Shown here: in pieces, positions 5,027-18,511 of the stretch
Layout: every line of letters begins with the position of its first letter
Numbering within the stretch: position 1 is the stretch's first letter
Assembly: GCF_005696695.1 (NCBI RefSeq)
Contig: NZ_CP040006.1
Span: 1,380,001-1,412,000 of the forward strand
DNA length: 32,000 nt
Reading direction: 5' to 3'
Origin: Schaalia odontolytica
Lineage (GTDB): Bacteria > Actinomycetota > Actinomycetes > Actinomycetales > Actinomycetaceae
Program-made: the position numbers and the translations under genes
Notes under the pieces: generated by a model
Seen by the model: only the letters and a program-made list of their open reading frames with translations
Database searches by the model: none
What the model was told of the DNA's origin: nothing

Positions 5027-7147
5027 TTACGCGTCGATACGCGTACGATCCAGCCCCGCGGATTCCTCGACGATAAACTCCTTGCGCGGGCCCACGGTCG
5101 AGCCCATGAGCAGCTCAAACACGTCCTCCGCCTGACGCAGGGCTTCCTCGTCGGCCAGCGTGATGCGACGCAGCGAGCGGTGAGCCCGGTCCATCGTGGT
5201 CTCAGCCAGCTGGTCGGCATCCATCTCGCCCAGGCCCTTGTACCGCTGGATGGGTTCCTTCCACGTGCGGCCCGAGCGACGCAGGGCGGCGAGCTTACGA
5301 TGCAGCTCGTCCTCGGAGTAGGTGTAGATGTACTCGCGCTTCTTGCGTCCCTTGCCTGCAACCTCGATGCGATGCAGGGGCGGGACGGCGGCGTAGATGC
5401 GGCCAGCCTCGACCATGGGGCGCATATAGCGGAAGAACAGGGTGAGCAGCAGGGTACGGATGTGCGCGCCGTCGACGTCGGCGTCGGTCATGAGGATGAC
5501 CTTGCCGTAGCGAGCCTGGGACAGGTCGAAGGTACGGCCCGAGCCCGCGCCGATCACCTGGATGATGTTGGCACACTCGGCGTTGGCCAGCATGTCCGCG
5601 GTCGAGGCCTTCTGCACGTTGAGGATCTTTCCTCGAATCGGGAACAGGGCCTGGTAGTGGGAGTTGCGCGCGGCCTTGGCCGTGCCCAGGGCGGAGTCGC
5701 CCTCGACGATGAAGAGCTCGGTCTCCTCGACGTCCTCGAGGCGGCAGTCCGCGAGCTTGGCGGGCAGCGAGGAGGTTTCCAGCGCGTTCTTCTTACGCGA
5801 GATCTCCTTGTGCAGGCGCGCGGAGACGCGGGCCTTCATCTCGCCGACGACCTTCTCCATGAGGAGGGAGGTCTGCTGCTTGTCGTCGCGCTTGGAGGAG
5901 GCGAACTTGGCCTTCAGCCAGTCGGAGACCACACGGTTGACGACGGTGCGAATCTGGGGAGTGCCCAGCGTTTCCTTGGTCTGTCCCTCGAACTGAGGCT
6001 CGGGGAAGCGCACGGTGATGACGGCCGTCATGCCGGCCTGGACGTCGTCTTTTTCGGGGCGCCCGTCCTTCGCGCCGACCTTGAGCTTGCGCGCATTCTT
6101 GTCGATCGCGGCACGCAGGGTCTTGAGGACTGCCTGCTCGAAGCCGGTGACGTGGGTGCCGCCCTTGGGGGTGGCGATGATGTTGACGAAGGACTGGACG
6201 GTCGTGTCGTAGCCGATGCCCCAGCGCAGCGCGATGTCGACCTCGCAGGTGCGCTCGACCTCGGTGGCGCGCAGGTGCCCGGTCTCGGAGTCCAGAGCCT
6301 GCACGGTCTCGTTGTAGGTACCCGCACCCGTGATGTGCCACGTGTCGGTGACGGGGCCGTCGGAGGCCAGCCAGTTCGCGAAGTCGACGACGCCGCCGTC
6401 GAAGCGGAAGCTCTCGTGAAGTTCCTCTTCGCCGCGCTCGTCGTAGCAGTTGATGGTCAGGCCGGGCACGAGGAACGCGGTCTGGCGGGCGCGCGCCAGC
6501 AGGTTCTCCCACGAGAACCCCTCGGTCGACGGGAAGATCTGGAAGTCCGCCCAGAAGCGCACGCGCGTGCCGGTCTGGGATTTCTTCACCTTGCCGACGG
6601 TCTTGAGCGTCGAGCCATCCACGAACGGCTTGAACGGCGAGTTGGGGGTGCGCTGCTTGGAGTCGTCGAATTCGCCGGGTTCGCCGCGGCGGAAGCACAT
6701 CTCGTGGGTCTTGCCGCCGCGGTCGACCTGCACGTCGAGGCGGGCCGACAGGGCGTTCACGACGGAGGCGCCGACGCCGTGGAGGCCGCCCGAGGCCGCG
6801 TAGGAGCCGCCGCCGAACTTACCGCCGGCGTGGAGCTTAGTGTAGACGACCTCGACGCCCGTCAGGCCCTGTCCGGGCACGATGTCGACGGGGATTCCTC
6901 GGCCGTTGTCGGCGACGGAGGCGGAGTGATCGGGGTGCAGGCGCACGTCGATCGTGTCGCAGTGGCCTTCCAGGGCCTCGTCGACCGCGTTGTCGATGAT
7001 CTCCCAGAGGCAGTGCATGAGGCCCCGATGGTCGGTGGAGCCGATGTACATGCCGGGGCGCTTGCGCACGGCTTCGAGCCCCTCGAGGACCGAGAGGTGC
7101 CGTGCGTTGTAGTCGGATGCGTCGGTAGGAGTCACGATGTGCATCAT
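5027..7147 (-). CDS. parE: Type IIA DNA topoisomerase subunit B (topoisomerase IV ParE / GyrB paralog)
   Basis: Motifs: VRKRPGMYIGS, GLHGVGASVVNALS, Toprim EGDSA, PIRGKILNV, DADVDGAHI. No adjacent A subunit in the window, hence parE-like rather than gyrB. Start trimmed to MMHIVTP (7147). The ORF-track extension to 7291 has no homology-like content. Confidence 0.85.
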   Translation of the reverse strand: MMHIVTPTDASDYNARHLSVLEGLEAVRKRPGMYIGSTDHRGLMHCLWEIIDNAVDEALEGHCDTIDVRLHPDHSASVADNGRGIPVDIVPGQGLTGVEVVYTKLHAGGKFGGGSYAASGGLHGVGASVVNALSARLDVQVDRGGKTHEMCFRRGEPGEFDDSKQRTPNSPFKPFVDGSTLKTVGKVKKSQTGTRVRFWADFQIFPSTEGFSWENLLARARQTAFLVPGLTINCYDERGEEELHESFRFDGGVVDFANWLASDGPVTDTWHITGAGTYNETVQALDSETGHLRATEVERTCEVDIALRWGIGYDTTVQSFVNIIATPKGGTHVTGFEQAVLKTLRAAIDKNARKLKVGAKDGRPEKDDVQAGMTAVITVRFPEPQFEGQTKETLGTPQIRTVVNRVVSDWLKAKFASSKRDDKQQTSLLMEKVVGEMKARVSARLHKEISRKKNALETSSLPAKLADCRLEDVEETELFIVEGDSALGTAKAARNSHYQALFPIRGKILNVQKASTADMLANAECANIIQVIGAGSGRTFDLSQARYGKVILMTDADVDGAHIRTLLLTLFFRYMRPMVEAGRIYAAVPPLHRIEVAGKGRKKREYIYTYSEDELHRKLAALRRSGRTWKEPIQRYKGLGEMDADQLAETTMDRAHRSLRRITLADEEALRQAEDVFELLMGSTVGPRKEFIVEESAGLDRTRIDA

Positions 7148-7383
7148 ATGTGGGTCAACGCTCGTTTGTGGCCAACGGTGCGCGTGGCGCGGGTTCTGGG
7201 ATGCTTTCCACGATTGACGAGGCCGGGGCCAGATCGCGCTGGGGGCGTACCGTTTCGGGGATGTTGGGGCTGTCGTTGGAGCGATTTCCACTCCCCCGTT
7301 TCATTGTGTCGGCGTGCGGGCGATCGATTGCGCCCCGGGTGAACAGGGGTGCGCGGGGCGGGGTGATGGTGTGTGATGGAAGC

Positions 7384-7599
7384 ATGAACGCACAGACTCT
7401 TGAACGCCCCGTACTGGACGAGCCGCAGCTCAGCGCGGCTAATCGTTGCGACGCCTGCGGCGCTCGCGCCTGGGTTCGTGCGACGATGCCTTCGGGTGGC
7501 CAGCTCTACTTCTGCGGCCACCACGCAAACGAGCACCTGCCCTCGCTGGTGGGCGCCGGCGCACAGATCCTGGACGAGCGTCATTTCATGAACGACTGA
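7384..7599 (+). CDS. Small Cys/His-rich conserved hypothetical protein (zinc-ribbon-like), divergent from parE
   Basis: 71 aa starting at MNAQTLERP. Contains CDACGARAW...YFCGHHANEH. A strong intrinsic terminator follows it. From memory it resembles the small actinobacterial proteins annotated DUF7455; not verifiable here. Confidence 0.55.
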   Translation: MNAQTLERPVLDEPQLSAANRCDACGARAWVRATMPSGGQLYFCGHHANEHLPSLVGAGAQILDERHFMND

Positions 7600-7640
7600 G
7601 AGCGAGCCTCCCGCAGCGGCGGGACGCACGGCTTGCAGGC

Positions 7641-7679
7641 GCGGGCGGGGACCGAGGGGTCCCCGCCCGCGTTTTTCTT
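7641..7679 (+). terminator. Rho-independent terminator
   Basis: GCGGGCGGGGACC-gagg-GGTCCCCGCCCGC is a 13-bp perfect stem. It is followed by GTTTTTCTT. Confidence 0.85.
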
Positions 7680-7854
7680 GCGCACATCGGTGTTGTACCC
7701 ATTTGCGATGCCTGCGTCACGAAACCGCTCCTGACCCGCACTTTTGATCCTCTCCCCCGCGCGCCTGTCAAAGAGCGCGTGGTACAGTTGCGAGCCGCTT
7801 TCGGGCACAAAAGGTGGCGAACTGACACACTGTCGCCCGCATTGGAGCAAAGCC

Positions 7855-8955
7855 ATGAAAATAGCGTGGAACGAAATTACATATCAACCAAAGAAGTTCG
7901 TTCTCATCGAGTTCCTGATCGCCACGCTCATGTTCATGGTCGTGTTCCTCTCGGGTCTCACCAACGGCCTCGGAGCCTCCGTGTCCGCGCAGATCACGAA
8001 CTACGGTCCCCTCACCTACGTCCTGTCGACGGACTCTGAGGGTGTCATCCCCTATTCGTCGGTGACCTCCGACGACATCGAGGCCCTCGAAGCGGCCGGC
8101 ATGCGCGACTACGCGAGCCTCGTCATCCAGCGCGCGACCATCACTCAGAACGACGACTCGAACACCCTGGACATCACGTACTTCGCGACGGATCACAACG
8201 ACGGTAACGTTCTCCAGCCGACCCTCATCGACTCCGACCTGACGATCTCCGATCTGGGAGACGACGAGGTCATCCTCGACAGCGCATTTGAGAACGAGGG
8301 CATCCACGTCGGGGATCGGGTGATCGACAAGATCTCGGAGCAGGAGCTCACGGTCGTCGCCTTCGCCTCGCGAGCCAACTACGGCTACAGCGACATCGGT
8401 TTCGTCAGCTCGCAGACCTACGCGGGTATGCGCACGGTGACCGTTCCGAACTACGAGTGGCAGGCCCAGACGGTCGTCACGTCGGATGAGATCGCGGAGG
8501 ACGCTCTTCCTGCTCATCTGATGACCGCGGACCGCCAGCAGGTCATCGATAAGATCCCCGGCTACAAGGCCCAGAACCTCACGCTGAAGATGATCACCTG
8601 GGTGCTCCTCGTGGCCTCGTCCGCGATCCTGGGTGTCTTCTTCTACATCCTCACCCTGCAGAAGCTGCGCCAGTTCGGCGTCCTCAAGGCGATCGGCATG
8701 CCGATGCGCACCATTACCTACATTCAGATCTCCCAGCTGACGATCATCTCGATCATCGGCGTCACGATCGGTCTCGGCCTCGCCGCCGCCATGGCGCCGT
8801 TCCTACCGAGCACGGTCCCTTCCATCATGACGCTCGCGGACAACGTCACCGTCGCGATCAGCTTCGTCGTGACCTCGATCCTGTGCGGTGCGCTGTCGCT
8901 GCTGAAGATCAAGAAGGTGGATCCCATCGAAGTCATCGGCGGAAACGGAGAATAA
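7855..8955 (+). CDS. ABC transporter permease, FtsX/MacB-like (N-terminal TM, large extracytoplasmic domain, C-terminal 3-TM FtsX domain)
   Basis: ATG at 7855 (MKIAWNEITYQPKKF...). One N-terminal TM helix, a roughly 230-aa hydrophilic domain, then a hydrophobic C-terminal bundle (LVASSAILGVFFYIL...GVLKAIGM...). The partner ATPase follows immediately. Confidence 0.8.
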   Translation: MKIAWNEITYQPKKFVLIEFLIATLMFMVVFLSGLTNGLGASVSAQITNYGPLTYVLSTDSEGVIPYSSVTSDDIEALEAAGMRDYASLVIQRATITQNDDSNTLDITYFATDHNDGNVLQPTLIDSDLTISDLGDDEVILDSAFENEGIHVGDRVIDKISEQELTVVAFASRANYGYSDIGFVSSQTYAGMRTVTVPNYEWQAQTVVTSDEIAEDALPAHLMTADRQQVIDKIPGYKAQNLTLKMITWVLLVASSAILGVFFYILTLQKLRQFGVLKAIGMPMRTITYIQISQLTIISIIGVTIGLGLAAAMAPFLPSTVPSIMTLADNVTVAISFVVTSILCGALSLLKIKKVDPIEVIGGNGE

Positions 8956-8956
8956 A

Positions 8957-9640
8957 GTGGCAATCATCGAACTGGATTCGATCGGAAAGTCCTACGCCGA
9001 CGGCGACCAGACGCACCGCGTGCTGAGTGGCCTCAGCCTGAGCGTCGACCCCGGCGAGTTCGTGGCAATCCTGGGGCCGTCCGGTTCCGGAAAGTCAACG
9101 CTCCTGTCCATCGCAGGCCTACTCCTGTCGGCCGACGAGGGGTGCATCTCCATCGCCGGCCAGGACCTGACCCAGCTCAGCCAGAAGCAGTGGACGCGCA
9201 AGCGCCTGGAGCTCCTGGGCTTCATCTTCCAGGACCACCAGCTGCTCCCCTACATGCGCATCGGCGATCAGCTCGAGCTCGTCGCCAAGCTCAAGGGGCA
9301 GAAGGACAAGGCCGCACGTCAGGCCGAGGTCCGCGCTCTCATGGAGGACCTGGGGATCGAGGCCTCCTACGCCAAGTACCCGCGCCAGATGTCGGGCGGC
9401 CAGAAGCAGCGCGCAGCGATCGCTCGTGCCTTCATCGGAAACCCGCAGCTGATCCTCGCCGACGAGCCGACCGCGAGCCTGGACCCGGATCGTGGCCAGG
9501 AGATCGCCCAGCTGATCTGCAAGGAAGTGAAGTCGAAGAATAAGAGCGCCATCATGGTGACGCATGATCGCTCGATCCTGCCCTACGTGGACACGATCTA
9601 CGAGCTCACGCACGGCACGCTGACCAGGCTCGAGGCCTGA
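8957..9640 (+). CDS. ABC transporter ATP-binding protein (MacB/LolD-type)
   Basis: Walker [11 protein letters not shown]-loop, signature MSGGQKQR, Walker [10 protein letters not shown]-loop MVTHD. The GTG start is 1 nt after the permease stop. Confidence 0.9.
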
Positions 9641-9722
9641 GAGCGGCGAGCGTTCCAGGCGCATAGCAGCAACGGCACCGGTGGGGATCTCCTGAGAAGA
9701 CACACAGGGGGTCCCCACTGCT

Positions 9723-10010
9723 TTATGCCTTCAGTGCTAGCAGGCCGTCAGAAATGAAACGACGCACAAGCTCACTGCGGGTTTGTCCGAGTTCCCCGGC
9801 AGCCTCGTCGAGCTCTCGAACTAGGGATTCGGGCAGGCGCGTGCCGACCGGCATCGTGTCCTCGCCGAAGAGCTGCGGACGACCCGGCAGGACCTTCCAC
9901 GATCCGTCGCATTCGCCCGCTTCGAAGCGCTGAGCATCTGCTTCAAGGTCAGCGTCGGTAACGGTGATCCCTCCCGCGAGACGGTAGGTCCCCTCTTGTT
10001 TCTTGCTCAT
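9723..10010 (-). CDS. Ribbon-helix-helix (CopG/BrnA-like) putative antitoxin
   Basis: 95 aa. The C-terminal segment VGTRLPESLVRELDEAAGELGQTRSELVRRFISDGL fits a beta-strand/helix/helix RHH pattern. It overlaps the upstream ORF by 4 nt (ATGA). Confidence 0.6.
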   Translation of the reverse strand: MSKKQEGTYRLAGGITVTDADLEADAQRFEAGECDGSWKVLPGRPQLFGEDTMPVGTRLPESLVRELDEAAGELGQTRSELVRRFISDGLLALKA

Positions 10011-10291
10011 TGCCCTCTCCTCTCAGGTCCAAATACTTCGGTCATCATTTTCTTTGAAGGCGGTGTCATCGCGTGATAGATGAGAATCGTGCCATCTTCT
10101 TGCAGAGCAGCAAGGAGTTCTAACAGCCGCCCGTTCCTGTCGTATCCCAGCGCAGCGTATGCGGGCCAGTACGGTGAGTCCACGCGTTCGGCGCACTCGA
10201 CTGCATACACCCATGCGTGAATCGCATCTTCGTCGGCGATCTCAGGATGTCGCGCGCTCACGCGCGGATGGACAACAACCGGCACGTCCAT
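10007..10291 (-). CDS. Small putative toxin partner (BrnT/DUF4258-like organisation; family uncertain)
   Basis: 94 aa, with GGAGGTGA upstream of the ATG. The layout HP.I...D..HAW...G.D.NGRLLE......DGT.LIYHAM recalls small RelE/BrnT-fold toxins. It is translationally coupled to the RHH gene. Family assignment is from memory only. Confidence 0.45.
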   Translation of the reverse strand: MDVPVVVHPRVSARHPEIADEDAIHAWVYAVECAERVDSPYWPAYAALGYDRNGRLLELLAALQEDGTILIYHAMTPPSKKMMTEVFGPERRGQ

Positions 10292-10322
10292 CGGCGCCTC
10301 ACCTCCCCTGCGACCATGCCAG

Positions 10323-10342
10323 GAATTTCGTTAACAAAATTC
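10323..10342 (-). promoter_or_regulatory. 20-bp near-perfect palindrome overlapping a -10-like TAGAAT: candidate operator of the toxin/antitoxin operon
   Basis: GAATTTCGTTAACAAAATTC has one mismatched pair. It lies 32-51 nt upstream of the toxin ATG. On the minus strand it overlaps TAGAAT (10339-10344). The patch is locally AT-rich in a GC-rich background. Confidence 0.45.
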
Positions 10343-10431
10343 TAACGCTGTCCTCACGGGCGTGCTGGTCAATGCAATCAATGGTCGATCGAAGCCAGGA
10401 ACGGTGACCATCGCCCGAGAAAGCCGCTCCC

Positions 10432-10619
10432 CTAGTCTGCGAGGCGCTGGGAGACCACCGTCGTGACGCCGTCGCGCATCGTGACGCCATAGAGGGCATC
10501 CGCGATCTCCATCGTGCGCTTCTGGTGCGTGATGACAATCAGCTGCGAGGTCTCCTGCAGCTCCTTGAAAATCGCCAGCAGGCGCGTCAGGTTCATGTCG
10601 TCCAGGGCGGCCTCGACCT
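10432..10619 (-). pseudogene. Truncated extra copy of the smc 3' end (last ~62 codons plus stop)
   Basis: Gap-free alignment to 14936-15123. I count 7 mismatches in 188 nt, 6 of them synonymous in the smc frame. It encodes ...[61 protein letters not shown]. Confidence 0.9.
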
Positions 10620-10833
10620 GGACTCCGATCCTCAGACTGGACCCGTATGGAACTCAAGAAATCACCCGGATGATCTGCAAGCAGGTGAAGTCCAAGAACA
10701 AGAGCGCCAGCATCGTGACGCACGATCGCCCGATCCTGCCCTAGGTGGACACGATCTACGAGCTCACGCACGGCACGCGCACCAAGCTCGAGGCCTGCGC
10801 GCGGCGAGCGCTCCATGCACAGGGAAGCTACGA
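10617..10833 (+). pseudogene. Truncated, decayed extra copy of the ABC-ATPase 3' end
   Basis: 10637-10798 aligns gap-free to 9479-9640, with 24 mismatches in 162 nt by my count. Tyr TAC has become TAG at 10742-10744, and the stop TGA has become TGC at 10796-10798. Similarity continues about 35 nt past the stop. 10620-10636 is an imperfect re-copy of the breakpoint sequence. Confidence 0.85.
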
Positions 10834-11021
10834 CATTGGAAAGAACCGATGCCGCCGCGACACCTATCTAGTGAGCGATGACGCCCCTTCGAACACCCCA
10901 AGAGCGCGGGAAACAACAATCAGATCAGATGCTCTAACGCTCCACGACCGCACCGCATAGCCATGTTGAATGGAACAAAGTCCACACGCCAACTTGTATT
11001 TGAAGCAAACCTGCAGGATGT

Positions 11022-11048
11022 TTGACAGTTACGGCGCATCCGTACACT
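11022..11048 (+). promoter_or_regulatory. Candidate promoter of the island operon
   Basis: TTGACA (11022-11027), a 15-nt spacer, then TACACT (11043-11048), about 45 nt upstream of the ATG at 11094. The spacing is short for sigma-70, so this is weakly supported. Confidence 0.3.
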
Positions 11049-11093
11049 AAAAGTGCTACGGTTCAGAAAAGTTCACCGACGAACGGAACGACC

Positions 11094-13115
11094 ATGAAAC
11101 TAAAATCCGTGCGGATACAGGGATACAGAGCCCACAAAGACACAACAGTAACGCTTGACAACGACCTTACCGTCATAGTCGGACGTAACAATACCGGAAA
11201 AACATCATTCATCGAAATCATCGATAAGTTCATCGGCGCAAATAAGAGAAACGGTATTCACGCGACGGACTTTTCTGCAGACCAACGCACTCAACTATTT
11301 AAATACGTACACAACAGAAGTAAGAAAACGAAAACGGAACAACTCATTCCAACAATCACTTTGACACTCAGTATCGACTACAGCCTCCAAGAAGATTCCG
11401 CTGAAGACATTGCCACCATCGCTCCATACTTCACCACTCTCGACACCACGTGCACAACGCTCGAAATTGTATGTAGATACGCACCTTCTAATGAAGAGTC
11501 TATAAAACGCGCGCTATCCGAAGTGCGAACAATGAGAGACAGGGATAAAGAAGATAAAATCTTGAGCCTCATTGAAAACTACGGAGAATACAAGACCACA
11601 TACAGCGCTCAATCAACCTTTGACGATCCCGAATTAGAAAAGCCAAACGAAGCTTGGGTCCTCACCAAAGAAGAAGTGCGAGCTATCGTGAATACTGAGT
11701 ACATCTACGCTCAGATCAACCTCGACGATACATCCACAGACAACAGTCACCATTTATCGTCCGCATTTGAACGCTTTTACAAAGAAGTCGCAGAAGATAC
11801 CGAGCTACGACAAAGTCTAGATGATCGTATAGATGACATGCAGTCCACGCTATCAACAGCATATACTAACTTTTTCGAAGAAGCTCTCGACCAAATCCAA
11901 CGCTTTACAAGCGTTACGAGCGCAGGATCATTGACACTCAAAGTTGAATCAGAGTTGAACACTTCACGAATGATTAACTCGACGACACGAGTAAAATATA
12001 CCGATAATGCATCGAGCCAAACCTACCCCGAGTCTCACAACGGCTTGGGATACTCAAGACTGACGTACACGATCCTGCAAATCCTCGCCTTCAAGGAACG
12101 TTGGAAGCACGCACAACGATTAACACCGATCAACATACTTTTTATTGAAGAACCCGAGGCACACCTCCATCCGCAGATGCAGGAGGTCTTCATTCGCCTT
12201 GTAAGCAACCTCCTCGACAGAGGCAGCCAACTTATCGTCACCACGCACTCTTCACACGTGCTGAGCGAACGCAATCTCAAGAGTCTACGCTACTTTAAAC
12301 GCATCAACACCAGTGTTACATGCAACGATATCTCAAAATGGGCAGTCAAATTAAAAAAGGACGACATCAAAGCTTACACCACGGTTTCGAACTACGTTCA
12401 ACTAAGAATCTCTGACCTATTTTTTGCAGACTGCGCGATCCTAGTCGAAGGCGCAGCGGAACGACTATTACTTCCTAAGGCGATTCAAACCAGCTGCCCT
12501 ATTCTCCGCTCGATCCACTACACAATTATTGAAGTTGGCGGAACCTACGCGCGACATATCATTCCTTTATTGGAAGAGATCGGCCTCCCGTCGATCGTTA
12601 TTACGGACATTGACAGCGTCGAAGACAAGCAACATGGAAAGAAAGTCGAACCACACCCATCAGCCAAACAGCGATGTGGAAATCCAACCATCACTCGTTA
12701 TTTACCCAACCGTTCGATCAAGGAACTTCTGACTCTCAACACAGTAGATAAAGTACACAATGGACTTATACGCATATGCTACCAAGCCGAACCAGATAGT
12801 TACAAATCGCCACGAAAATACGCACGCACATTAGAAGATGCCTTGATATACGCGAATGCCCAGCTGTTCACATCGACAGGCTTTCAAGACCATTTTGAAG
12901 AGCCAGTAATGAAGGAGAAGCTAAAAGAACAACATAACGCAAAAGGAATAGCTAAGGAAGCCTATAGCATTGTGACAGACGACCGCTTCCAAAAAACGAC
13001 ATTCGCTATCGATTGCAGCCTAATGGACGATCTCACGATTCCCCCTTACATCAAAGAGGGACTGACATGGCTTGAAGAAGTGTTAACAATCACTCCGTTA
13101 ACGCTCAATGACTAA
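11094..13115 (+). CDS. gajA: OLD-family ATP-dependent endonuclease (ABC-type ATPase + C-terminal Toprim), GajA-like
   Basis: 673 aa from MKLKSVRIQGY. Walker A GRNNTGKTS (aa 30-38), Walker B ILFIEEPEAHLHP (aa ~348-360), H-loop VTTHSSH. Toprim Glu in AILVEGAAERLLLP (aa ~449-461), DxD in VITDIDS (aa ~502-508), and a later RTLEDAL. The ORF-track start at 11022 falls in the promoter-like TTGACA and is rejected. Confidence 0.8.
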   Translation: MKLKSVRIQGYRAHKDTTVTLDNDLTVIVGRNNTGKTSFIEIIDKFIGANKRNGIHATDFSADQRTQLFKYVHNRSKKTKTEQLIPTITLTLSIDYSLQEDSAEDIATIAPYFTTLDTTCTTLEIVCRYAPSNEESIKRALSEVRTMRDRDKEDKILSLIENYGEYKTTYSAQSTFDDPELEKPNEAWVLTKEEVRAIVNTEYIYAQINLDDTSTDNSHHLSSAFERFYKEVAEDTELRQSLDDRIDDMQSTLSTAYTNFFEEALDQIQRFTSVTSAGSLTLKVESELNTSRMINSTTRVKYTDNASSQTYPESHNGLGYSRLTYTILQILAFKERWKHAQRLTPINILFIEEPEAHLHPQMQEVFIRLVSNLLDRGSQLIVTTHSSHVLSERNLKSLRYFKRINTSVTCNDISKWAVKLKKDDIKAYTTVSNYVQLRISDLFFADCAILVEGAAERLLLPKAIQTSCPILRSIHYTIIEVGGTYARHIIPLLEEIGLPSIVITDIDSVEDKQHGKKVEPHPSAKQRCGNPTITRYLPNRSIKELLTLNTVDKVHNGLIRICYQAEPDSYKSPRKYARTLEDALIYANAQLFTSTGFQDHFEEPVMKEKLKEQHNAKGIAKEAYSIVTDDRFQKTTFAIDCSLMDDLTIPPYIKEGLTWLEEVLTITPLTLND

Positions 13116-14871
13116 CGAAGATACCAATATGAATAGCGAAATATTTGCATCAATTCGGTGCGGCAAGAATTTTATTTTCGAAGCGGGGCCAGGCTCCGGA
13201 AAGACAACCTCACTCATTCAAACGCTACGAAAGATACTTGACCAACCCGGCGACACCATCAACACGCAGAAACAGAAGATCGCTTGCATTACGTTTACGA
13301 ATGTTGCTGCCAACGAAATCATCGAGCGCCTCGATGACGATTCTAACGTCGTTCAGGTGTCGACGATTCACAGCTTCCTCTGGAATCAGATTAAGCCCTA
13401 TCAATCAGAGCTATGTGACATCATCACCAGCATAAACAATGATCCGAACAGGCCCGCGAAAAAGATCATCTCAAACCTCGATCTCAACGGCATCGAGATT
13501 CGATACGTCGACGGATACGCCGATCTAACAAAAGGCGAAATTTCCCACGATGATGTGCTGGAAATTGCATATCACATGTTCAAACATCACCCGGTCCTGG
13601 GTCACGTTACCAGGTGCCGATATCCAATCGTATTCTTAGACGAATATCAAGACACTCAGCCAATTGTTATCGACACGCTAAAACATATCCTTACGCTCGA
13701 ACCAAGAGCAGACTTCGGATACGCGCGATTCTTAGTCGGACTGTTTGGCGATTCCATGCAGAGTATTTACAACACCGGAATCGGAAGCGTGCAGCCCACC
13801 GACCTAAACGCGGTCACAATCACCAAAACTGACAACCATCGTTCAACAGACACAATCGTTAACTTGATTAATGCGGTTCGCGCAAGGAGCAAGGAAGCAA
13901 TGCCTGTGATCCAAACCGCAACAAGACCCGATCAGCCCTCTAGTTCCAGATGTTCCCTATATTACACAACCGACAACGTCGAGGTGACTCATTCGACGCT
14001 TGAATCCATTTCTAGACATTTCGGCTGGATACTCGGCATGGATACCAAGATACTCGAGCTGACCCATTCAGCAATTTCACGCACAGCCGGCTGGAATAGT
14101 CTTCACAGCGCAATAAACGATCGCAGTCGTTACGCATTGGACGACTTTCGAAAAGGAGACGACATTTATTCCAGTATTTTTTCTTTTTTAACTAGGTTAT
14201 ACAGAGCCTGGTCTGCCGATGACGGCTTCGAAGCACTCAACTTACTTAGATTCCATTCACCCGGATCACTGAGAGAAAGGACGTTGTTCGGTTCGAGTGA
14301 CGAAATGCAGCACTGGTCCTCACTTCTCGACGAATTCACAACGCGTTGTTCATCACGCGATCTTACACAATGTTCCATTTCGTCGATTCTCAACTTTGCC
14401 TGGGATAACGATATTTGCAAACAGGATTTTCGAATTGCACAATATCTGGAACGAACGGACTTTCAGAACGAGGAACATAAGGTACGGCGCGACAACTTCA
14501 TCCACGCTCTTGATTCTATTCCTTTTTCGGAATTACTCAAGTTTTCCGAATACCTGGATAAGACAAGCCCTTTTTCCACTGAGCATGGCACAAAGGGAGC
14601 AGAATATGACAACGTGATTCTCATCATTGATGATAAGACTTGGAAACACCAGTACAGGGTCTCAGCTCTATTTGGTTCAGACGACCATATTGATGCTCGT
14701 AAAGAAAGAACACTGAGACTATTTTATGTTGCAATTTCACGCGCACGGAACAATCTTGTCGTCGTTTACAAGAATCCTACAGCTGATAGTATTGCCGGCG
14801 CCGAGGAACTATTTGGCACAAACAACGTCCAGCCACTTGAGGAGATCTTGCCCGACATCGCTATTTCTTAG
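13108..14871 (+). CDS. gajB: UvrD/PcrA/Rep-like superfamily 1 helicase, GajB-like
   Basis: 587 aa. Motif I EAGPGSGKTT, Ia ITFTNVAANEI, STIHSFLW, II VFLDEYQDT, III LFGDSMQSIY, IV DNHRST, and C-terminal HGTKGAEYDNV and LFYVAISRARNNLVVV. The ATG overlaps the gajA-like stop by 8 nt. An alternative ATG is at 13129. Confidence 0.8.
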   Translation: MTNEDTNMNSEIFASIRCGKNFIFEAGPGSGKTTSLIQTLRKILDQPGDTINTQKQKIACITFTNVAANEIIERLDDDSNVVQVSTIHSFLWNQIKPYQSELCDIITSINNDPNRPAKKIISNLDLNGIEIRYVDGYADLTKGEISHDDVLEIAYHMFKHHPVLGHVTRCRYPIVFLDEYQDTQPIVIDTLKHILTLEPRADFGYARFLVGLFGDSMQSIYNTGIGSVQPTDLNAVTITKTDNHRSTDTIVNLINAVRARSKEAMPVIQTATRPDQPSSSRCSLYYTTDNVEVTHSTLESISRHFGWILGMDTKILELTHSAISRTAGWNSLHSAINDRSRYALDDFRKGDDIYSSIFSFLTRLYRAWSADDGFEALNLLRFHSPGSLRERTLFGSSDEMQHWSSLLDEFTTRCSSRDLTQCSISSILNFAWDNDICKQDFRIAQYLERTDFQNEEHKVRRDNFIHALDSIPFSELLKFSEYLDKTSPFSTEHGTKGAEYDNVILIIDDKTWKHQYRVSALFGSDDHIDARKERTLRLFYVAISRARNNLVVVYKNPTADSIAGAEELFGTNNVQPLEEILPDIAIS

Positions 14872-14935
14872 GCGATTGTTAATAGTGGCTTCTGTATAAC
14901 TGGCTCGTTTCCTTTTGCGTCCTTAATGAAGTTTC

Positions 14936-17900
14936 CTAGTCCGCGAAGCGCTGGGACACCACCGTCGTGACGCCGTCGCGCATCGTGACGCCGTAGAGGG
15001 CATCCGCGATCTCCATCGTGCGCTTCTGGTGCGTGATGACGATGAGCTGCGAGGTCTCCTGCAACTCCTTGAAAATCGCCAGCAGGCGCGTCAGGTTCAT
15101 GTCGTCCAGGGCGGCCTCGACCTCGTCCATGACGTAGAACGGGGACGGGCGCGCCTTGAAGATCGCGACCAGGAACGCGATCGCGGCCAGGGAACGCTCG
15201 CCGCCCGACAGCAGGGACAGGCGCTTGACCTTCTTGCCCGCGGGGCGAGCCTCGATCTCGATGCCGGTCGAGAGCATGTCGTCCGGGTCGGTGAGCACCA
15301 GGTCGCCCTGGCCGCCCGGGAACAGCACGCCGAACACGTGCTCGAACTGCTCGCGCGTCTCGGCGAAGGCCGACGCGAAGGCCTCCTCCACCAGGCGATC
15401 CACGTCCTGCACGATGCGAAGCAGGTCCGCCTTCGAAGCTTTGAGGTCCTGGACCTGGTCCACCAGGAACTTGTGTCGCGAGGCCAGCGCCTCGTGCTCC
15501 TCGAGCGCCAGGGGGTTCACGCGCCCCAGCTTCTCCAAGTCCTTCTGTGCCTTGGCGAGCGCTCGTTCCTGCTCGGCGCGCACGTAGGCGCTCGGCTCGG
15601 CGGCTGCGGCCTTCTCAACCTGGTCGGGGTCGAGCGGCAGCATCGGCACCAGCATCTGCGGCCCGAACTCGGCGAGCAGCTGCTCGGGCTCGAGAGACAG
15701 TTCTTCGAGGGCGCGCCGTTGCAGATCCTCGACACGCAGGCGCGTCTGTTCGGCGGCTATCTGCCCCTGGTGGGCCGAGGCCGTGGCCTCCGACAGCTCG
15801 GCGCTCAGCCGGTCCAGGGCGCGGCGTGCGTCCGAGACCTCCTGGGAGACCTGGGAGCGTCGCTCACTCAGGCGGTCGCGCTCGGCGGCAGCCTGAGCCA
15901 GGGCGCGCTCGGCGGCCTCGAGGGCGACGCGGGCTGCGGCCTCCACGTCCGAGGCCGTGGCCAGCTCCGTCTTGCGCGCGGCCTCGCGCCGGGCGTAGCG
16001 GGCGCGCTCCTCGCGCTCGGCGGCGGCTGCTTGGCGCAGGGAGCGGGCGCGGGAGGCGGCGCGCCGCGATTGCTCTTCGAGGGCTCGCAGGCTCAGGCGC
16101 GCCTCGTTTTCGGCCTCGCGGGCCTCGCGTGCCGCCCGTGAGGCGGCATCCGCGCGGGCCTGGGCGTCTTCGAGGGACTCGGGCGGGCCGACGGTGTCGG
16201 CACCGTCGAGGCGTGCGCGCGCAGCCACGTCCTGCTCGCGGGCCCAGGTCACTTGCTCGTCGGCGCGGCGTGCCACATCGTGGGCGCGCTCTGCTTCGGC
16301 TCGGGCGGCCTGCGCGGCCGACTGGGCGCGGGCCAGCTCCTGGGCTTCCTTGGCGCGCTGCGCGTCTTCCTCGCGCAGGGCCTTCAGGGCGTCGTTTGCC
16401 TCGCGGATGCAGCGGTCCAGGTGGGCGTTTGCCTCGCTGAGCTGCTCGGAGACCTCGGCCATGCGGGCCCGAGCGGCCTCGGCCAGCGCGTAGGCCTCCT
16501 CGTAGTCTGCGCGCACGGAGAGCACGGAGGAGGCCTGGCGGCCACCCTCCACCGACCAGGAGCGCAGCACGTCGCCGCCCGACGTGACGACGGCGCGCAC
16601 GCCTGGCATGTCCAGCACGTCAGCGGCGGCCTCAAGCGAGCACGCGACAACCCCGTCCAGCAGGGACGCGAGCGGAGCTGCGGCCCCCTCGCAGACGACG
16701 ACGTCGGACAGCCACGTCGCACCCTCGGGCAGATCGGCACGGACGGCCCCGATGGTCCCCTCTGCGGGACCATCAGAAGGACCGGAAGAATCAGATGCCA
16801 CGACCAACCGCAGCGAGCGCCCGGCCGCGCGGGCGGCGTCCAGCTCGCCCAGGCCTCGGGCGAGGGAGTCGACGACGACGGCGTCGGCGAAGGGAGCCAG
16901 CGCCGCGGCGACGGCGTCCTCGAAACCGGGGGTGACGTGCAGGAGGGGCGCGACCTGGCCGAGCACGCCGGGGCGTCCCAGCAGCTCGGCGGTGCCGTCC
17001 TCGGGGGCGAGCAGCTGCTCAAGCGCGTCGCGGCGCGCCTCCCAGCGCGCGCGGTCGGCCCGCGCCTCGCGTTCGATGCCGAGCAGCTCGTCCACGCGGG
17101 CACGCGCGGCGTCGCGGCGGGCGGAGGCCTCGGCGTGTGCGCGGGCCGCTCCCCCGCTGGCTTCTTCCTCGGACGAGGCCCCCTCAGCAACATCAACAGA
17201 GCCCACAGACGACGCGGGCACTGCCTTCTCGGCAGCCTCGGCGCGCTCCTGGGCCGCGCGGTAGGCGCCCCACGCGCGGTCGGCCTCGGCGATGGCGGCC
17301 TCTAAGCGAGACGCGGCCGTGGAGGCGTCGCCCGTCAGGCGCGCGACCTTCTCGCGGTGGTCGGCAATGACGCGGTTGACGCGGGCCAGCTCGCGCGACG
17401 CGGAATCGTCGGCATCCTCCGCGGCCTCGCGCGCACGAGTCGCGGACGTCAGTGCGGAGCGTGCGGCTTCGACCTGGCCGGCCAGGGCCGCATCCTCGGC
17501 GCCGGCGATGCGGGCGCGCTCGTCAAGCACGTCGGGGTCCTCGCCGCCCGGGGGCAGCTCGGGGGTCGCCCGCAGCGAGACCTTCTGGGTCGCAGCCATC
17601 AGCGTGCCGCGCAGGCGCTCGGTGATCGTGGTCAGCGCCTGCCAGTCGGAGGATGCCTGCTCGAGCGCCGGCGAGGAGGCACGCTCAGCGTCCTCCAGGC
17701 GCGCTAGCTCGGCGCGCGCGGCTGCAATCTGTTCCTCGAGCGAGGCCCGGCGGGCGGCGGCCGACTCGTCCGATGCCTCGAGCACGGATAGCTTCGACAG
17801 CGCAGACGCCAGGTCATCGGCGAGCAGGCGGGCCTTCGCGTCGCGCACGCGCGCCTGAATGAGGGACGCGCGACGAGCAACCCGCGCCTGGCGAGCCAGG

Positions 17901-18511
17901 GGCCCCAGCTGGCGGTGAATCTCGTTCGTCAGGTCCAGGACGCGCACGAGGTTCGCGTCCATGTCGGCCAGCTTCTTGAGCGCGCGCTCCTTGCGCCGGC
18001 GATGCTTGAGGACGCCCGCGGCCTCTTCGATGAATCCGCGACGCTCCTCGGGCGTAGAGGACAGAATCGCGTCGAGCTGCCCCTGGCCGACGATGACGTG
18101 CATCTGACGGCCCATGCCCGTGTCGGAGAGGAGCTCCTGCACGTCCAGCAGCCTCGCCGGAGTGCCGTTAATGGAGTATTCGGAGCCGCCCCCACGGAAC
18201 AGGGTACGGCTGATCGTGACCTCGGAATACTCGATGTCGAGCAACCCGTCGGTGTTGTCAATCGTCAGGTCCACCTGGGCGCGCCCCAACGCCGCGCGCC
18301 CAGATGTCCCCGCGAAAATCACGTCCGCCATTTGCCCGCCGCGCAGCGCGCGGGCACCCTGCTCGCCCATGACCCAGGCGAGAGCGTCGACGACGTTGGA
18401 TTTACCCGACCCGTTGGGGCCGACGACGCACGTGATGCCCGGTTGGAGGGCGAGCGTGGTCGCACTGGCGAAGGACTTAAAGCCCCGCAGCGTCAGGTTT
18501 TTGAGGTACAC
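14936..18511 (-). CDS. smc: Chromosome segregation protein SMC
   Basis: 1191 aa. N-terminal MYLKNLTLRGFKSF...GPNGSGKSN, a long Ala/Arg/Glu coiled coil with a central hinge, and C-terminal LSGGERSL and FYVMDEVEAALD. Confidence 0.95.
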   Translation of the reverse strand: MYLKNLTLRGFKSFASATTLALQPGITCVVGPNGSGKSNVVDALAWVMGEQGARALRGGQMADVIFAGTSGRAALGRAQVDLTIDNTDGLLDIEYSEVTISRTLFRGGGSEYSINGTPARLLDVQELLSDTGMGRQMHVIVGQGQLDAILSSTPEERRGFIEEAAGVLKHRRRKERALKKLADMDANLVRVLDLTNEIHRQLGPLARQARVARRASLIQARVRDAKARLLADDLASALSKLSVLEASDESAAARRASLEEQIAAARAELARLEDAERASSPALEQASSDWQALTTITERLRGTLMAATQKVSLRATPELPPGGEDPDVLDERARIAGAEDAALAGQVEAARSALTSATRAREAAEDADDSASRELARVNRVIADHREKVARLTGDASTAASRLEAAIAEADRAWGAYRAAQERAEAAEKAVPASSVGSVDVAEGASSEEEASGGAARAHAEASARRDAARARVDELLGIEREARADRARWEARRDALEQLLAPEDGTAELLGRPGVLGQVAPLLHVTPGFEDAVAAALAPFADAVVVDSLARGLGELDAARAAGRSLRLVVASDSSGPSDGPAEGTIGAVRADLPEGATWLSDVVVCEGAAAPLASLLDGVVACSLEAAADVLDMPGVRAVVTSGGDVLRSWSVEGGRQASSVLSVRADYEEAYALAEAARARMAEVSEQLSEANAHLDRCIREANDALKALREEDAQRAKEAQELARAQSAAQAARAEAERAHDVARRADEQVTWAREQDVAARARLDGADTVGPPESLEDAQARADAASRAAREAREAENEARLSLRALEEQSRRAASRARSLRQAAAAEREERARYARREAARKTELATASDVEAAARVALEAAERALAQAAAERDRLSERRSQVSQEVSDARRALDRLSAELSEATASAHQGQIAAEQTRLRVEDLQRRALEELSLEPEQLLAEFGPQMLVPMLPLDPDQVEKAAAAEPSAYVRAEQERALAKAQKDLEKLGRVNPLALEEHEALASRHKFLVDQVQDLKASKADLLRIVQDVDRLVEEAFASAFAETREQFEHVFGVLFPGGQGDLVLTDPDDMLSTGIEIEARPAGKKVKRLSLLSGGERSLAAIAFLVAIFKARPSPFYVMDEVEAALDDMNLTRLLAIFKELQETSQLIVITHQKRTMEIADALYGVTMRDGVTTVVSQRFAD

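Follow-up and report, generated by a model that had tools for sequence, protein, structure and literature searches.

The two genes described here, gajA and gajB, lie in a 32,000-nucleotide stretch of the Schaalia odontolytica chromosome (NZ_CP040006.1, 1,380,001-1,412,000; the whole stretch is called the window, and positions are counted from its start). With a probability of roughly 0.87, they form an intact two-gene Gabija (GajA/GajB, class 2 OLD) cassette of a widespread long-form subfamily, carried as accessory DNA at a variable ABC-transporter/smc locus; the estimate includes the mechanism and the arrival route proposed below. The architecture is a known one and the cassette is not a new system. 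Gabija is among the commonest defence systems, and standard tools would call the locus. The genes are as follows.

gajA, 11094..13115, + strand: class 2 OLD nuclease of 673 amino acids (aa) from its ATG, with an ABC ATPase carrying an insertion, a Toprim domain and a C-terminal helical domain
gajB, 13129..14871, + strand: superfamily 1A (SF1A) UvrD/PcrA-like helicase of 580 aa from the conserved start

A GajA OLD protein with a tandem UvrD-like helicase is the defining architecture of class 2 OLD, or Gabija (PMC6755086, PMC10568477). The initial annotation of this DNA, made from the letters alone, had read the pair in this way and as no new architecture, and both views are supported by PADLOC, Pfam and PDB sequence searches, by Foldseek searches with AlphaFold2 models and by the conserved gene pairing. 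Gabija is defined operationally in PADLOC and DefenseFinder as a GajA profile match with an adjacent GajB profile match, and both matches are present here: in the profile searches that the annotation had proposed as a check, the first protein matches GajA/OLD and the second GajB/SF1, each near full length, and the long PADLOC GajA and GajB profiles already span both proteins. A GajB-like open reading frame (ORF) stands directly downstream, on the same strand, in 82 of the 83 loci that encode GajA relatives, and the sole exception ends about 100 nt past gajA. In the window both ORFs are intact, on the + strand and tightly linked, and the 4.5-kb insert has no further ORF and no third gene. Judged from substitution rates, both genes are under purifying selection, with a ratio of nonsynonymous to synonymous divergence (dN/dS) of 0.06-0.17 against alleles at 73-85% identity.

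GajA is matched by PADLOC profile PDLC00063 (E 4.2e-142; residues 1-662 against profile positions 1-661 of 679) and by GajA profiles of 670 and 736 positions (1e-136 and 5e-134), and of the 25 best PADLOC profiles listed for this protein 22 are GajA profiles. Pfam assigns AAA_15 (E 1.5e-50) and OLD-like_TOPRIM (E 3.4e-16), and the best PDB sequence match is the B. cereus GajA (E 8e-15). All the GajA and GajB motifs quoted in the initial annotation are found at the expected places of the two intact ORFs. Those of GajA are the following.

Walker A, GRNNTGKTS: residues 30-38
Q-loop: Q207
Signature, NGLGYS: residues 316-321
Walker B, ILFIEEPEAHLHP: residues 348-360
H-loop, VTTHSSH: residues 382-388
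Toprim glutamate: E452, in LVEGAAER
Toprim DxD: D505/D507, in ITDIDS

The N-terminal ABC ATPase thus has all five motifs expected of a class 2 OLD, from Walker A to the H-loop, and the C-terminal Toprim site has its glutamate, a second glutamate four residues on and the DxD (E452, E456, D505 and D507). Among 37 GajA sequences of 30-85% identity the invariant positions are K36, Q207, N316-G319, E352/E353 and H385 in the ATPase, E452, E456, D505 and D507 in the Toprim domain, and R578, E581 and K634 in the C-terminal region; with the exception of N316, these columns are at least 95% conserved in a cross-phylum alignment of 77 genomes. Residues 580-666 are predicted to be helical. T579-L-E581 (consensus S/T-x-E, with E581 invariant) and the invariant K634 belong to this region, which has no significant sequence match to the BpOLD (Burkholderia pseudomallei) or BcGajA (B. 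cereus) chains. From their pattern and invariance, T579/E581 and K634 may be equivalent to the metal-B ligands and the conserved lysine of BpOLD.

The AlphaFold2 model of GajA, built from the 37-sequence alignment, has a mean predicted local distance difference test score (pLDDT) of 78.6. Foldseek places GajA structures first (8x5i, 8u7i and 8sm3; E 2e-22 to 3e-20), followed by TsOLD and then by the retron-Eco8 OLD protein. The stretch between Walker A and Walker B, which in the model is an ABC lobe with dimerisation helices, had been described as a helical insertion of about 310 residues; the length holds, at about 312 residues, while eight beta-strands are predicted besides the helices, one of which spans 37 residues (236-272).

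A further conserved element directly after the Q-loop reads DDTSxDxxHxLSxxFE (residues 208-228, window 11715-11777). Its residues D211, D212 and D216 are invariant in the 37 sequences, D211 is at least 95% conserved in the 77 genomes, and the motif falls in the lowest-confidence loop of the model (pLDDT <50).

GajB, numbered here after the 587-aa ORF, carries the motif set of a superfamily 1 (SF1) helicase.

GPGSGKT: residues 27-33
DEYQD: residues 178-182
GD..QSIY: residues 214-221
NHRS: residues 243-246
TKGAEYD: residues 495-501
YVAISRA: residues 540-546

Motifs I-VI are invariant in 38 GajB sequences (K32, DEYQD 178-182, G214/D215/Q218, R245, H493/K496/G497/E499 and Y540/V541/S544/R545), and together with the 1A/1B/2A/2B fold they are those of an SF1 helicase. 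PADLOC profiles PDLC00135 (E 1.6e-124) and PDLC00113 (E 1.3e-96) match, the latter over residues 5-578 of 587. Pfam assigns UvrD-helicase and UvrD_C, and the best PDB sequence match is B. cereus GajB (E 4e-6). The AlphaFold2 model (pLDDT 86.2; 38-sequence alignment) retrieves UvrD, PcrA and Rep first in Foldseek (E ~1e-21, probability 1.0, query-based TM-score, TMq, 0.52-0.55), whereas BcGajB follows at E 3e-15 and TMq 0.34; likewise, the family profile reaches 2e-27 for PcrA versus 4e-17 for BcGajB. The model has a large all-helical region at about 320-486, presumably a full 2B domain.

The longest gajB ORF (13108..14871, + strand, 587 aa) overlaps gajA by 8 nt, as the initial annotation had stated, but only when translation starts at the ATG at 13108. 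Among the 15 closest GajB clusters, 12 have MNSE or MND as their start, which corresponds to window position 13129, and in L081, the closest allele with context (related loci are given here by their L numbers), the codon at the upstream start is ATC and the spacer is 13 nt, as in the window. The conserved start at 13129 is therefore preferred, which gives a protein of 580 aa and a 13-nt spacer in place of the overlap. A longer gajA from a TTG at 11022 was rejected: homologues start with MKL at the ATG, the upstream conservation has no codon pattern and an indel in L084 breaks the frame.

The cassette is accessory, as relatives with 96%-identical flanks lack it. The window backbone shares its gene order with oral Actinomyces assemblies (from an uncultured Actinomyces sp. 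and from Actinomyces sp. ICM47), to which the flanks are 84-93% identical. The description of the cassette as compositionally foreign is borne out by a GC content of 0.43-0.48 across 11001-15000, as opposed to 0.58-0.76 on either side in the window scan, and by the GC content at third codon positions (GC3), which is 0.49 and 0.50 for gajA and gajB versus 0.88 for smc and 0.85-0.89 for the ABC transporter genes; the overall GC of the two genes is 45-46%. When the window is aligned to the Gabija-less locus L094, whose flanks are 96% identical, the alignment stops at 10619 and continues from 14935, its two parts overlapping by 189 nt on the L094 side. This break indicates a 4,504-bp insertion (10620-15123) flanked by 189-bp direct repeats, and the 189 nt of Gabija-less relatives align to both copies. 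The features involved are these.

Left direct repeat, 10431..10619: dead duplicate of the smc 3' end, 189 nt long and 96% identical to 14935-15123, in antisense to the smc coding strand
ABC-transporter ATPase 3'-end pseudogene, 10625..10835, + strand: 211 nt, 82% identical to the intact 9467-9677, with an in-frame stop
Right direct repeat, 14935..15123, - strand: 3'-terminal 189 nt of the intact smc
Intact smc, 14936-18511, - strand

The smc and ABC fragments meet at 10619/10620, a point that falls within the Walker-B coding sequence of both genes, and the junction has CCTCG microhomology. The ABC pseudogene is 82-85% identical to the ABC ATPase gene, or its remnant, directly before gajA in L001, L002, L081, L084 and L086-L088, whereas the intact ABC ATPase copy of the window is 89-91% identical to the gene of the relatives; the pseudogene is either donor-derived or freely decaying. 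Contigs that carry the exact antitoxin of the window show the order smc, toxin, ribbon-helix-helix (RHH) antitoxin, ABC ATPase, permease, DUF7455 and gyrB, and in 8 of 8 listed places with this antitoxin, the complete genome CP102197.1 included, no Gabija is present. A donor-type order, ABC permease, ABC ATPase, gajA, gajB and smc, is found in L086 and, with a decayed ABC gene, in L081 and L088.

The proposed arrival starts from a donor segment consisting of the ABC-ATPase 3' fragment, the leader, gajAB and the smc 3' end, which would have recombined into a Gabija-less haplotype with ABC transporter, toxin-antitoxin (TA) pair and smc. This could have happened by a single crossover of a circularised fragment, or through an smc homologous anchor combined with an illegitimate join, and either would have left the 189-bp repeats. 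In L001, L002 and L084, too, a short piece of smc (32-35 nt) stands before the ABC remnant, so that similar insertion events are either old or recurrent. The repeats consist of target-gene DNA and are accompanied by a fragment of the donor's neighbouring gene, which fits homologous or illegitimate recombination.

Two other descriptions of the insert were rejected. For a site-specific integrative island there is no integrase-size ORF in 10431-15123 and no tRNA in the window, and the repeats are 189 bp of target-gene DNA. Nor does Gabija account for the additional DNA in every comparison: with respect to L081 and L001, what the window has in excess is the ABC transporter, the TA pair and the smc fragment, and the cassette stands out as an insertion only against the TA-bearing Gabija-less haplotype. 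In blastn searches the cassette gave only matches of about 58 nt over Walker B among 72,556 plasmids and nothing among 50,697 phages.

The position beside smc bears on another explanation, that the genes encode a UvrD/PcrA paralogue and an SMC/RecF-like ATPase with a housekeeping role in DNA repair, a pair that merely resembles Gabija. GajB does resemble UvrD/PcrA, GajA has weak N-terminal matches to Rad50/RecF/SMC, and the cassette adjoins smc. The adjacency, however, is accounted for by recombination into the smc 3' end; the cassette is missing from close relatives, a complete genome among them, its codon composition is foreign, the NCBIfam uvrD/pcrA/rep scores are far under the curated cut-offs (65 vs 911 bits, and so on), and an OLD-type Toprim nuclease and full-length GajA/GajB profile matches are present. 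A repair pair is thus highly improbable, the least probable of the explanations weighed here.

The age of the Gabija cassette has two aspects. In L082 and L083 it is about 99.9% identical to that of the window (synonymous divergence, dS, 0-0.005), whereas the adjacent smc has a dS of 0.127. Other GajA alleles at the same gyrB-smc locus are 85, 73 and 52-54% identical (range 52-100%); against the 73% allele the cassette dS is saturated (2.5-3.3) versus 0.62 for smc, and across the divergent alleles in general the cassette dS is saturated and that of smc is 0.35-0.62. At least four deeply divergent Gabija allele lineages, with GajA 52-56% identical between lineages, occupy this one locus (L001, L002, L081, L084, L086 and L088 compared with the window). 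All alleles have a GC3 of 0.42-0.50, so that the low GC is a standing property of the cassette family and not the signature of a fresh import. The pattern is consistent with long-lived alleles that are exchanged by way of the homologous flanks and have not visibly ameliorated to the GC of the host. The suggestion of recent acquisition accordingly holds for this strain lineage, in view of the empty site with 96%-identical flanks and of the near-identical cassettes beside diverged smc genes, and does not hold for the cassette lineage, which is old in the clade.

A 2.7-kb contig binned as 'uncultured Alloprevotella sp.' (L004, CAUSYJ010000252.1) carries an Actinomyces-type Gabija allele of 54% identity, probably owing to a binning error rather than to cross-phylum transfer. 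The literature search found nothing specific on Gabija in Actinomyces or Schaalia.

Directly upstream of gajA lies a conserved leader.

AT-rich gajA leader, 10964..11093, + strand: 130 nt, conserved across alleles

The leader is 83-90% identical in 5 of 6 allele comparisons, including alleles whose coding DNA is about 65% identical, and 70% identical in L084, whereas the upstream pseudogene tail is only 37-77% identical. The indel in L084 breaks any reading frame, and the leader is therefore non-coding. In it TTGACA (11022-11027) is separated by 15 nt from TACACT (11043-11048), and AAAAGTTCACCGACGAACGG, an invariant block at 11067-11086, includes a GTTC-N6-GAAC palindrome that ends 8 nt before the ATG. 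Of the loci compared, all 10 Actinomyces Gabija loci have this motif and none of the 87 others does; the window contains a single copy. The leader is plausibly a promoter/operator or a region of translational control. A scan for consensus promoters and terminators gave counts not above those of shuffled sequences and no site in the leader, the 15-nt spacer of TTGACA/TACACT being outside the scan. RNA structure in the leader is unsupported (RNAalifold -6.3 kcal/mol, with a single compensated pair and a covariation term that is unfavourable), and Rfam has no family in 7000-16000.

The leader and the substitution pattern also bear on whether the genes are a silent or decaying relic, acquired horizontally, AT-rich, possibly silenced and devoid of a defence role in this host. 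AT-rich DNA in a high-GC actinobacterium, the pseudogene debris of smc and ABC fragments around the cassette and the want of a consensus promoter above chance would all suit such a relic. Against it, both ORFs are intact and retain all catalytic residues, dN/dS stays low even in comparisons where dS is saturated, the leader is far better conserved than the adjoining pseudogene tail, and an identical cassette occurs in strains with diverged smc, which suggests recent spread. A relic is on this evidence improbable, if less so than a repair pair, and a functional Gabija cassette is preferred.

How the cassette would work is proposed by homology to the Gabija systems of B. cereus and P. aeruginosa. 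The B. cereus GajAB is a 4:4 complex with the catalytic residues E379 and D432/D434 (PMC10781630), and the Toprim domain of class 2 OLD proteins has a two-metal site (PMC6755086). Nucleotide sensing has been described for Gabija (PMC8136825) and a response to DNA termini for GajB (bioRxiv 10.1101/2023.05.02.539174). A further study (PMC12407980) points to RecBCD-free DNA ends and reports that the native region upstream of P. aeruginosa Gabija is repressive. By analogy, GajA would oligomerise through its ATPase insertion and dock GajB to form a GajAB complex, in which the Toprim site (E452, E456, D505, D507 and probably T579/E581 with K634) would cut DNA by two-metal catalysis. In healthy cells cutting would be restrained by normal nucleotide levels, by the action of host end-processing enzymes on DNA ends, or by both. 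During infection GajB would engage DNA ends and hydrolyse (d)NTPs or translocate, and GajAB would destroy phage DNA or block its circularisation and replication. The parts, the catalytic residues, the pairing and the selective constraint can be read from the DNA itself; the defence activity of the cassette is suggested by the same analogy.

Both proteins are larger than the studied B. cereus ones. The solved B. cereus chains have 578 aa (GajA) and 494 aa (GajB), and the window proteins exceed them by 95 and 86-93 aa, in agreement with the earlier estimate of about 90. That the additional sequence could hide something undescribed is not upheld. The PADLOC profiles range over 570-750 positions for GajA and 540-685 for GajB, with the B. 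cereus pair at the short end, and those of 670-736 and 579-603 positions, respectively, cover both window proteins end to end. At E <= 1e-10 GajA has more than 6,000 protein matches, typically 663-720 aa long, from Streptomyces, other actinomycetes, many Proteobacteria and other phyla, and the long-form subfamily as a whole is large and cross-phylum (648-750 aa). In the 77-genome alignment each 20-residue block of GajA is present in at least 76% of homologues, except for about 601-620 and the 13 C-terminal residues. The tail that follows the Toprim domain corresponds to the helical domain that defines class 2 OLDs (PMC6755086). The additional length of GajB makes it closer to canonical UvrD/PcrA, not further from it. 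No extra domain was found in long-form GajA or GajB.

From local alignments, GajA has about 60 residues more than BcGajA in 62-230 (Walker A to just past the Q-loop Q207), about 20 more in 230-520 and about 14 more at the C terminus. Residues 551-673 or 60-230 taken alone have only chance-level matches to PDB sequences (E 0.06-1.3), so that the additional sequence cannot be mapped residue by residue onto BcGajA or BpOLD. The literature searched yielded no experimentally characterised member of the long-form group.

It is possible, though a good deal less probable than the standard reading, that the cassette is Gabija by architecture and yet a mechanistically distinct variant. GajB would then be a PcrA-like unwinding or translocating helicase with a full 2B domain, GajA a BpOLD-like, ATP-hydrolysing and non-specific nuclease with an enlarged ABC lobe, and activation and targets would differ, for instance by including plasmids or conjugative elements besides phages. 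The GajB model and profile do lie nearer UvrD/PcrA/Rep (1e-21; 2e-27) than BcGajB (3e-15; 4e-17), the roughly 60 additional GajA residues between 62 and 230 and the invariant acidic D211/D212/D216 in a low-confidence loop are in line with it, characterised class 2 OLDs already vary biochemically (PMC10568477), and LsGajA is non-specific and acts on plasmids (PMC13304284). However, every defining feature of Gabija is present, the PADLOC GajA/GajB profiles already cover the subfamily, there is neither an extra domain nor a third gene, and the gaps in fold score may reflect only domain orientation and the reduced 2B domain of BcGajB. A broader version is more doubtful still: that long-form Gabija works unlike the B. 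cereus paradigm, with the enlarged ABC lobe and its D211/D212/D216 loop and with a PcrA-like GajB that has a full 2B domain and is perhaps a true unwinding motor coupled to an ATP-hydrolysing nuclease, and that it is kept in oral Actinomyces as ancient trans-species AT-rich alleles at one smc-adjacent hotspot with a shared leader/operator. If true, the shared leader/operator, with GTTC-N6-GAAC beside the start codon, would indicate that the expression of a self-toxic system is under dedicated control.

Several points weigh against the preferred reading of a Gabija cassette with the mechanism and arrival route given above. Its defence phenotype, complex formation and trigger are carried over by homology, and identity to the B. 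cereus pair, the only structurally characterised one, is as low as about 15-17% in the Foldseek alignments. Interface residues, for example K94/R97 of BcGajA and V147/Q150 of BcGajB, cannot be mapped onto the long form. The GajA subfamily profile is about equally close to the class 1 TsOLD (1e-20) and to BcGajA (8e-19), and the GajB profile is closer to PcrA (2e-27) than to BcGajB (4e-17), for which reasons details of the mechanism may depart from those known in B. cereus. The recombination route, for its part, has been reconstructed from haplotypes that exist today.

As a system the cassette adds little. It documents a very large long-form Gabija branch whose helicase is more PcrA/UvrD-like than the GajB studied so far. 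It is also a clean natural case of a defence cassette moving between related chromosomes without mobile-element machinery, with an empty site, a 189-bp target duplication and a fragment of a donor gene at its edge. The divergent alleles, with one locus, one AT-rich composition and one leader, make the control of Gabija expression testable in Actinobacteria.

The interval between gyrB and smc contains two further modules.

MacB/FtsX-type ABC transporter: permease 7744-8955 and ATPase 8957-9640, intact in the window, L086 and L090/L092
TA-like pair, 9723-10291, - strand: 95-aa RHH (CopG-type) protein and an overlapping 94-aa protein

The ABC transporter is partly deleted or pseudogenised in several close relatives (window 7676-9348 compared with L081, L088, L091, L094 and L095), and since it is intact in some relatives and decayed in others, the interval is a variable region. 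The exact RHH protein occurs in 862 blocks of the public collection, and its 94-aa partner has no Pfam or PADLOC match. The TA module is directly beside smc in relatives, and a remnant of it lies between gajB and smc in L086. In L001, the closest named relative, the place of the ABC transporter of the window is taken by a HicA-like toxin with a partner gene (8130-8701), which again indicates a build-up of TA modules at the locus.

Several known systems have parts in common with the cassette. P2 Old/TsOLD, the retron-Eco8 OLD protein, AriA of PARIS and PtuA of Septu have an ABC ATPase core in common with GajA, and the OLD proteins a Toprim nuclease as well; profiles or structures of TsOLD (6P74), retron Eco8, PtuA and AriA match GajA in the PADLOC, PDB and Foldseek searches. 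None of these assignments was retained. The AriA profile of PARIS matches residues 1-389 only (E 8e-52), the Toprim domain is fused to the ATPase and is not a separate AriB, and the partner is a helicase. For class 3 OLD/retron-Eco8, the 4.5-kb insert has no reverse transcriptase ORF, no Rfam non-coding RNA is found in 7000-16000, and the NCBIfam retron_eff_Eco8 score is 58 bits vs a cut-off of 250. Class 1 OLD (P2 Old, TsOLD) was rejected because a conserved helicase partner is present, though the profile is about as near TsOLD as BcGajA. Septu would require an HNH PtuB, of which there is none.

The GajA/GajB pair of B. cereus VD045 (PDB 8SM3, 8U7I, 8JQ9, 8J4T and 8TK0; PMC10781630, PMC10822852, PMC8136825) has the same operon order, with the OLD-type ATPase-Toprim protein first and the UvrD-like SF1 helicase second. 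E379 and D432/D434 of BcGajA align directly to E452 and D505/D507 of the window GajA, as do the Walker A lysine, Walker B and the H-loop. The B. cereus pair is the best PDB sequence match for both window proteins and the best fold match for GajA only, and the window proteins differ from it in their greater length (95 and 86-93 aa) and in the more UvrD/PcrA-like GajB.

The class 2 OLDs of Burkholderia pseudomallei and Xanthomonas campestris (BpOLD and XccOLD; 6NK8, 6NJV; PMC6755086) also have a tandem UvrD-like helicase. Residues 432-512 of GajA align to chain residues 8-90 (E 9e-6; with the profile 2e-11), E452/E456 and the DxD match the spacing of E400/E404 and the DxD of BpOLD, and T579-L-E581 with K634 resemble by pattern its T506/E508 and conserved lysine. 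The spacing from DxD to TxE is about 72 residues in the window GajA vs 49 in BpOLD, and BpOLD and XccOLD have 594-595 aa vs 673 aa.

The long PADLOC groups match end to end (PDLC00063/65/93 for GajA, 1e-134 to 1e-142; PDLC00135/113 for GajB, 1e-97 to 1e-125). Outside the oral Actinomyces clade the nearest named genomes are only 29-34% identical, and genomes with the same long form, invariably followed by GajB, include those of Streptomyces, Catellatospora, Cedecea, Escherichia whittamii, Burkholderia and many others.

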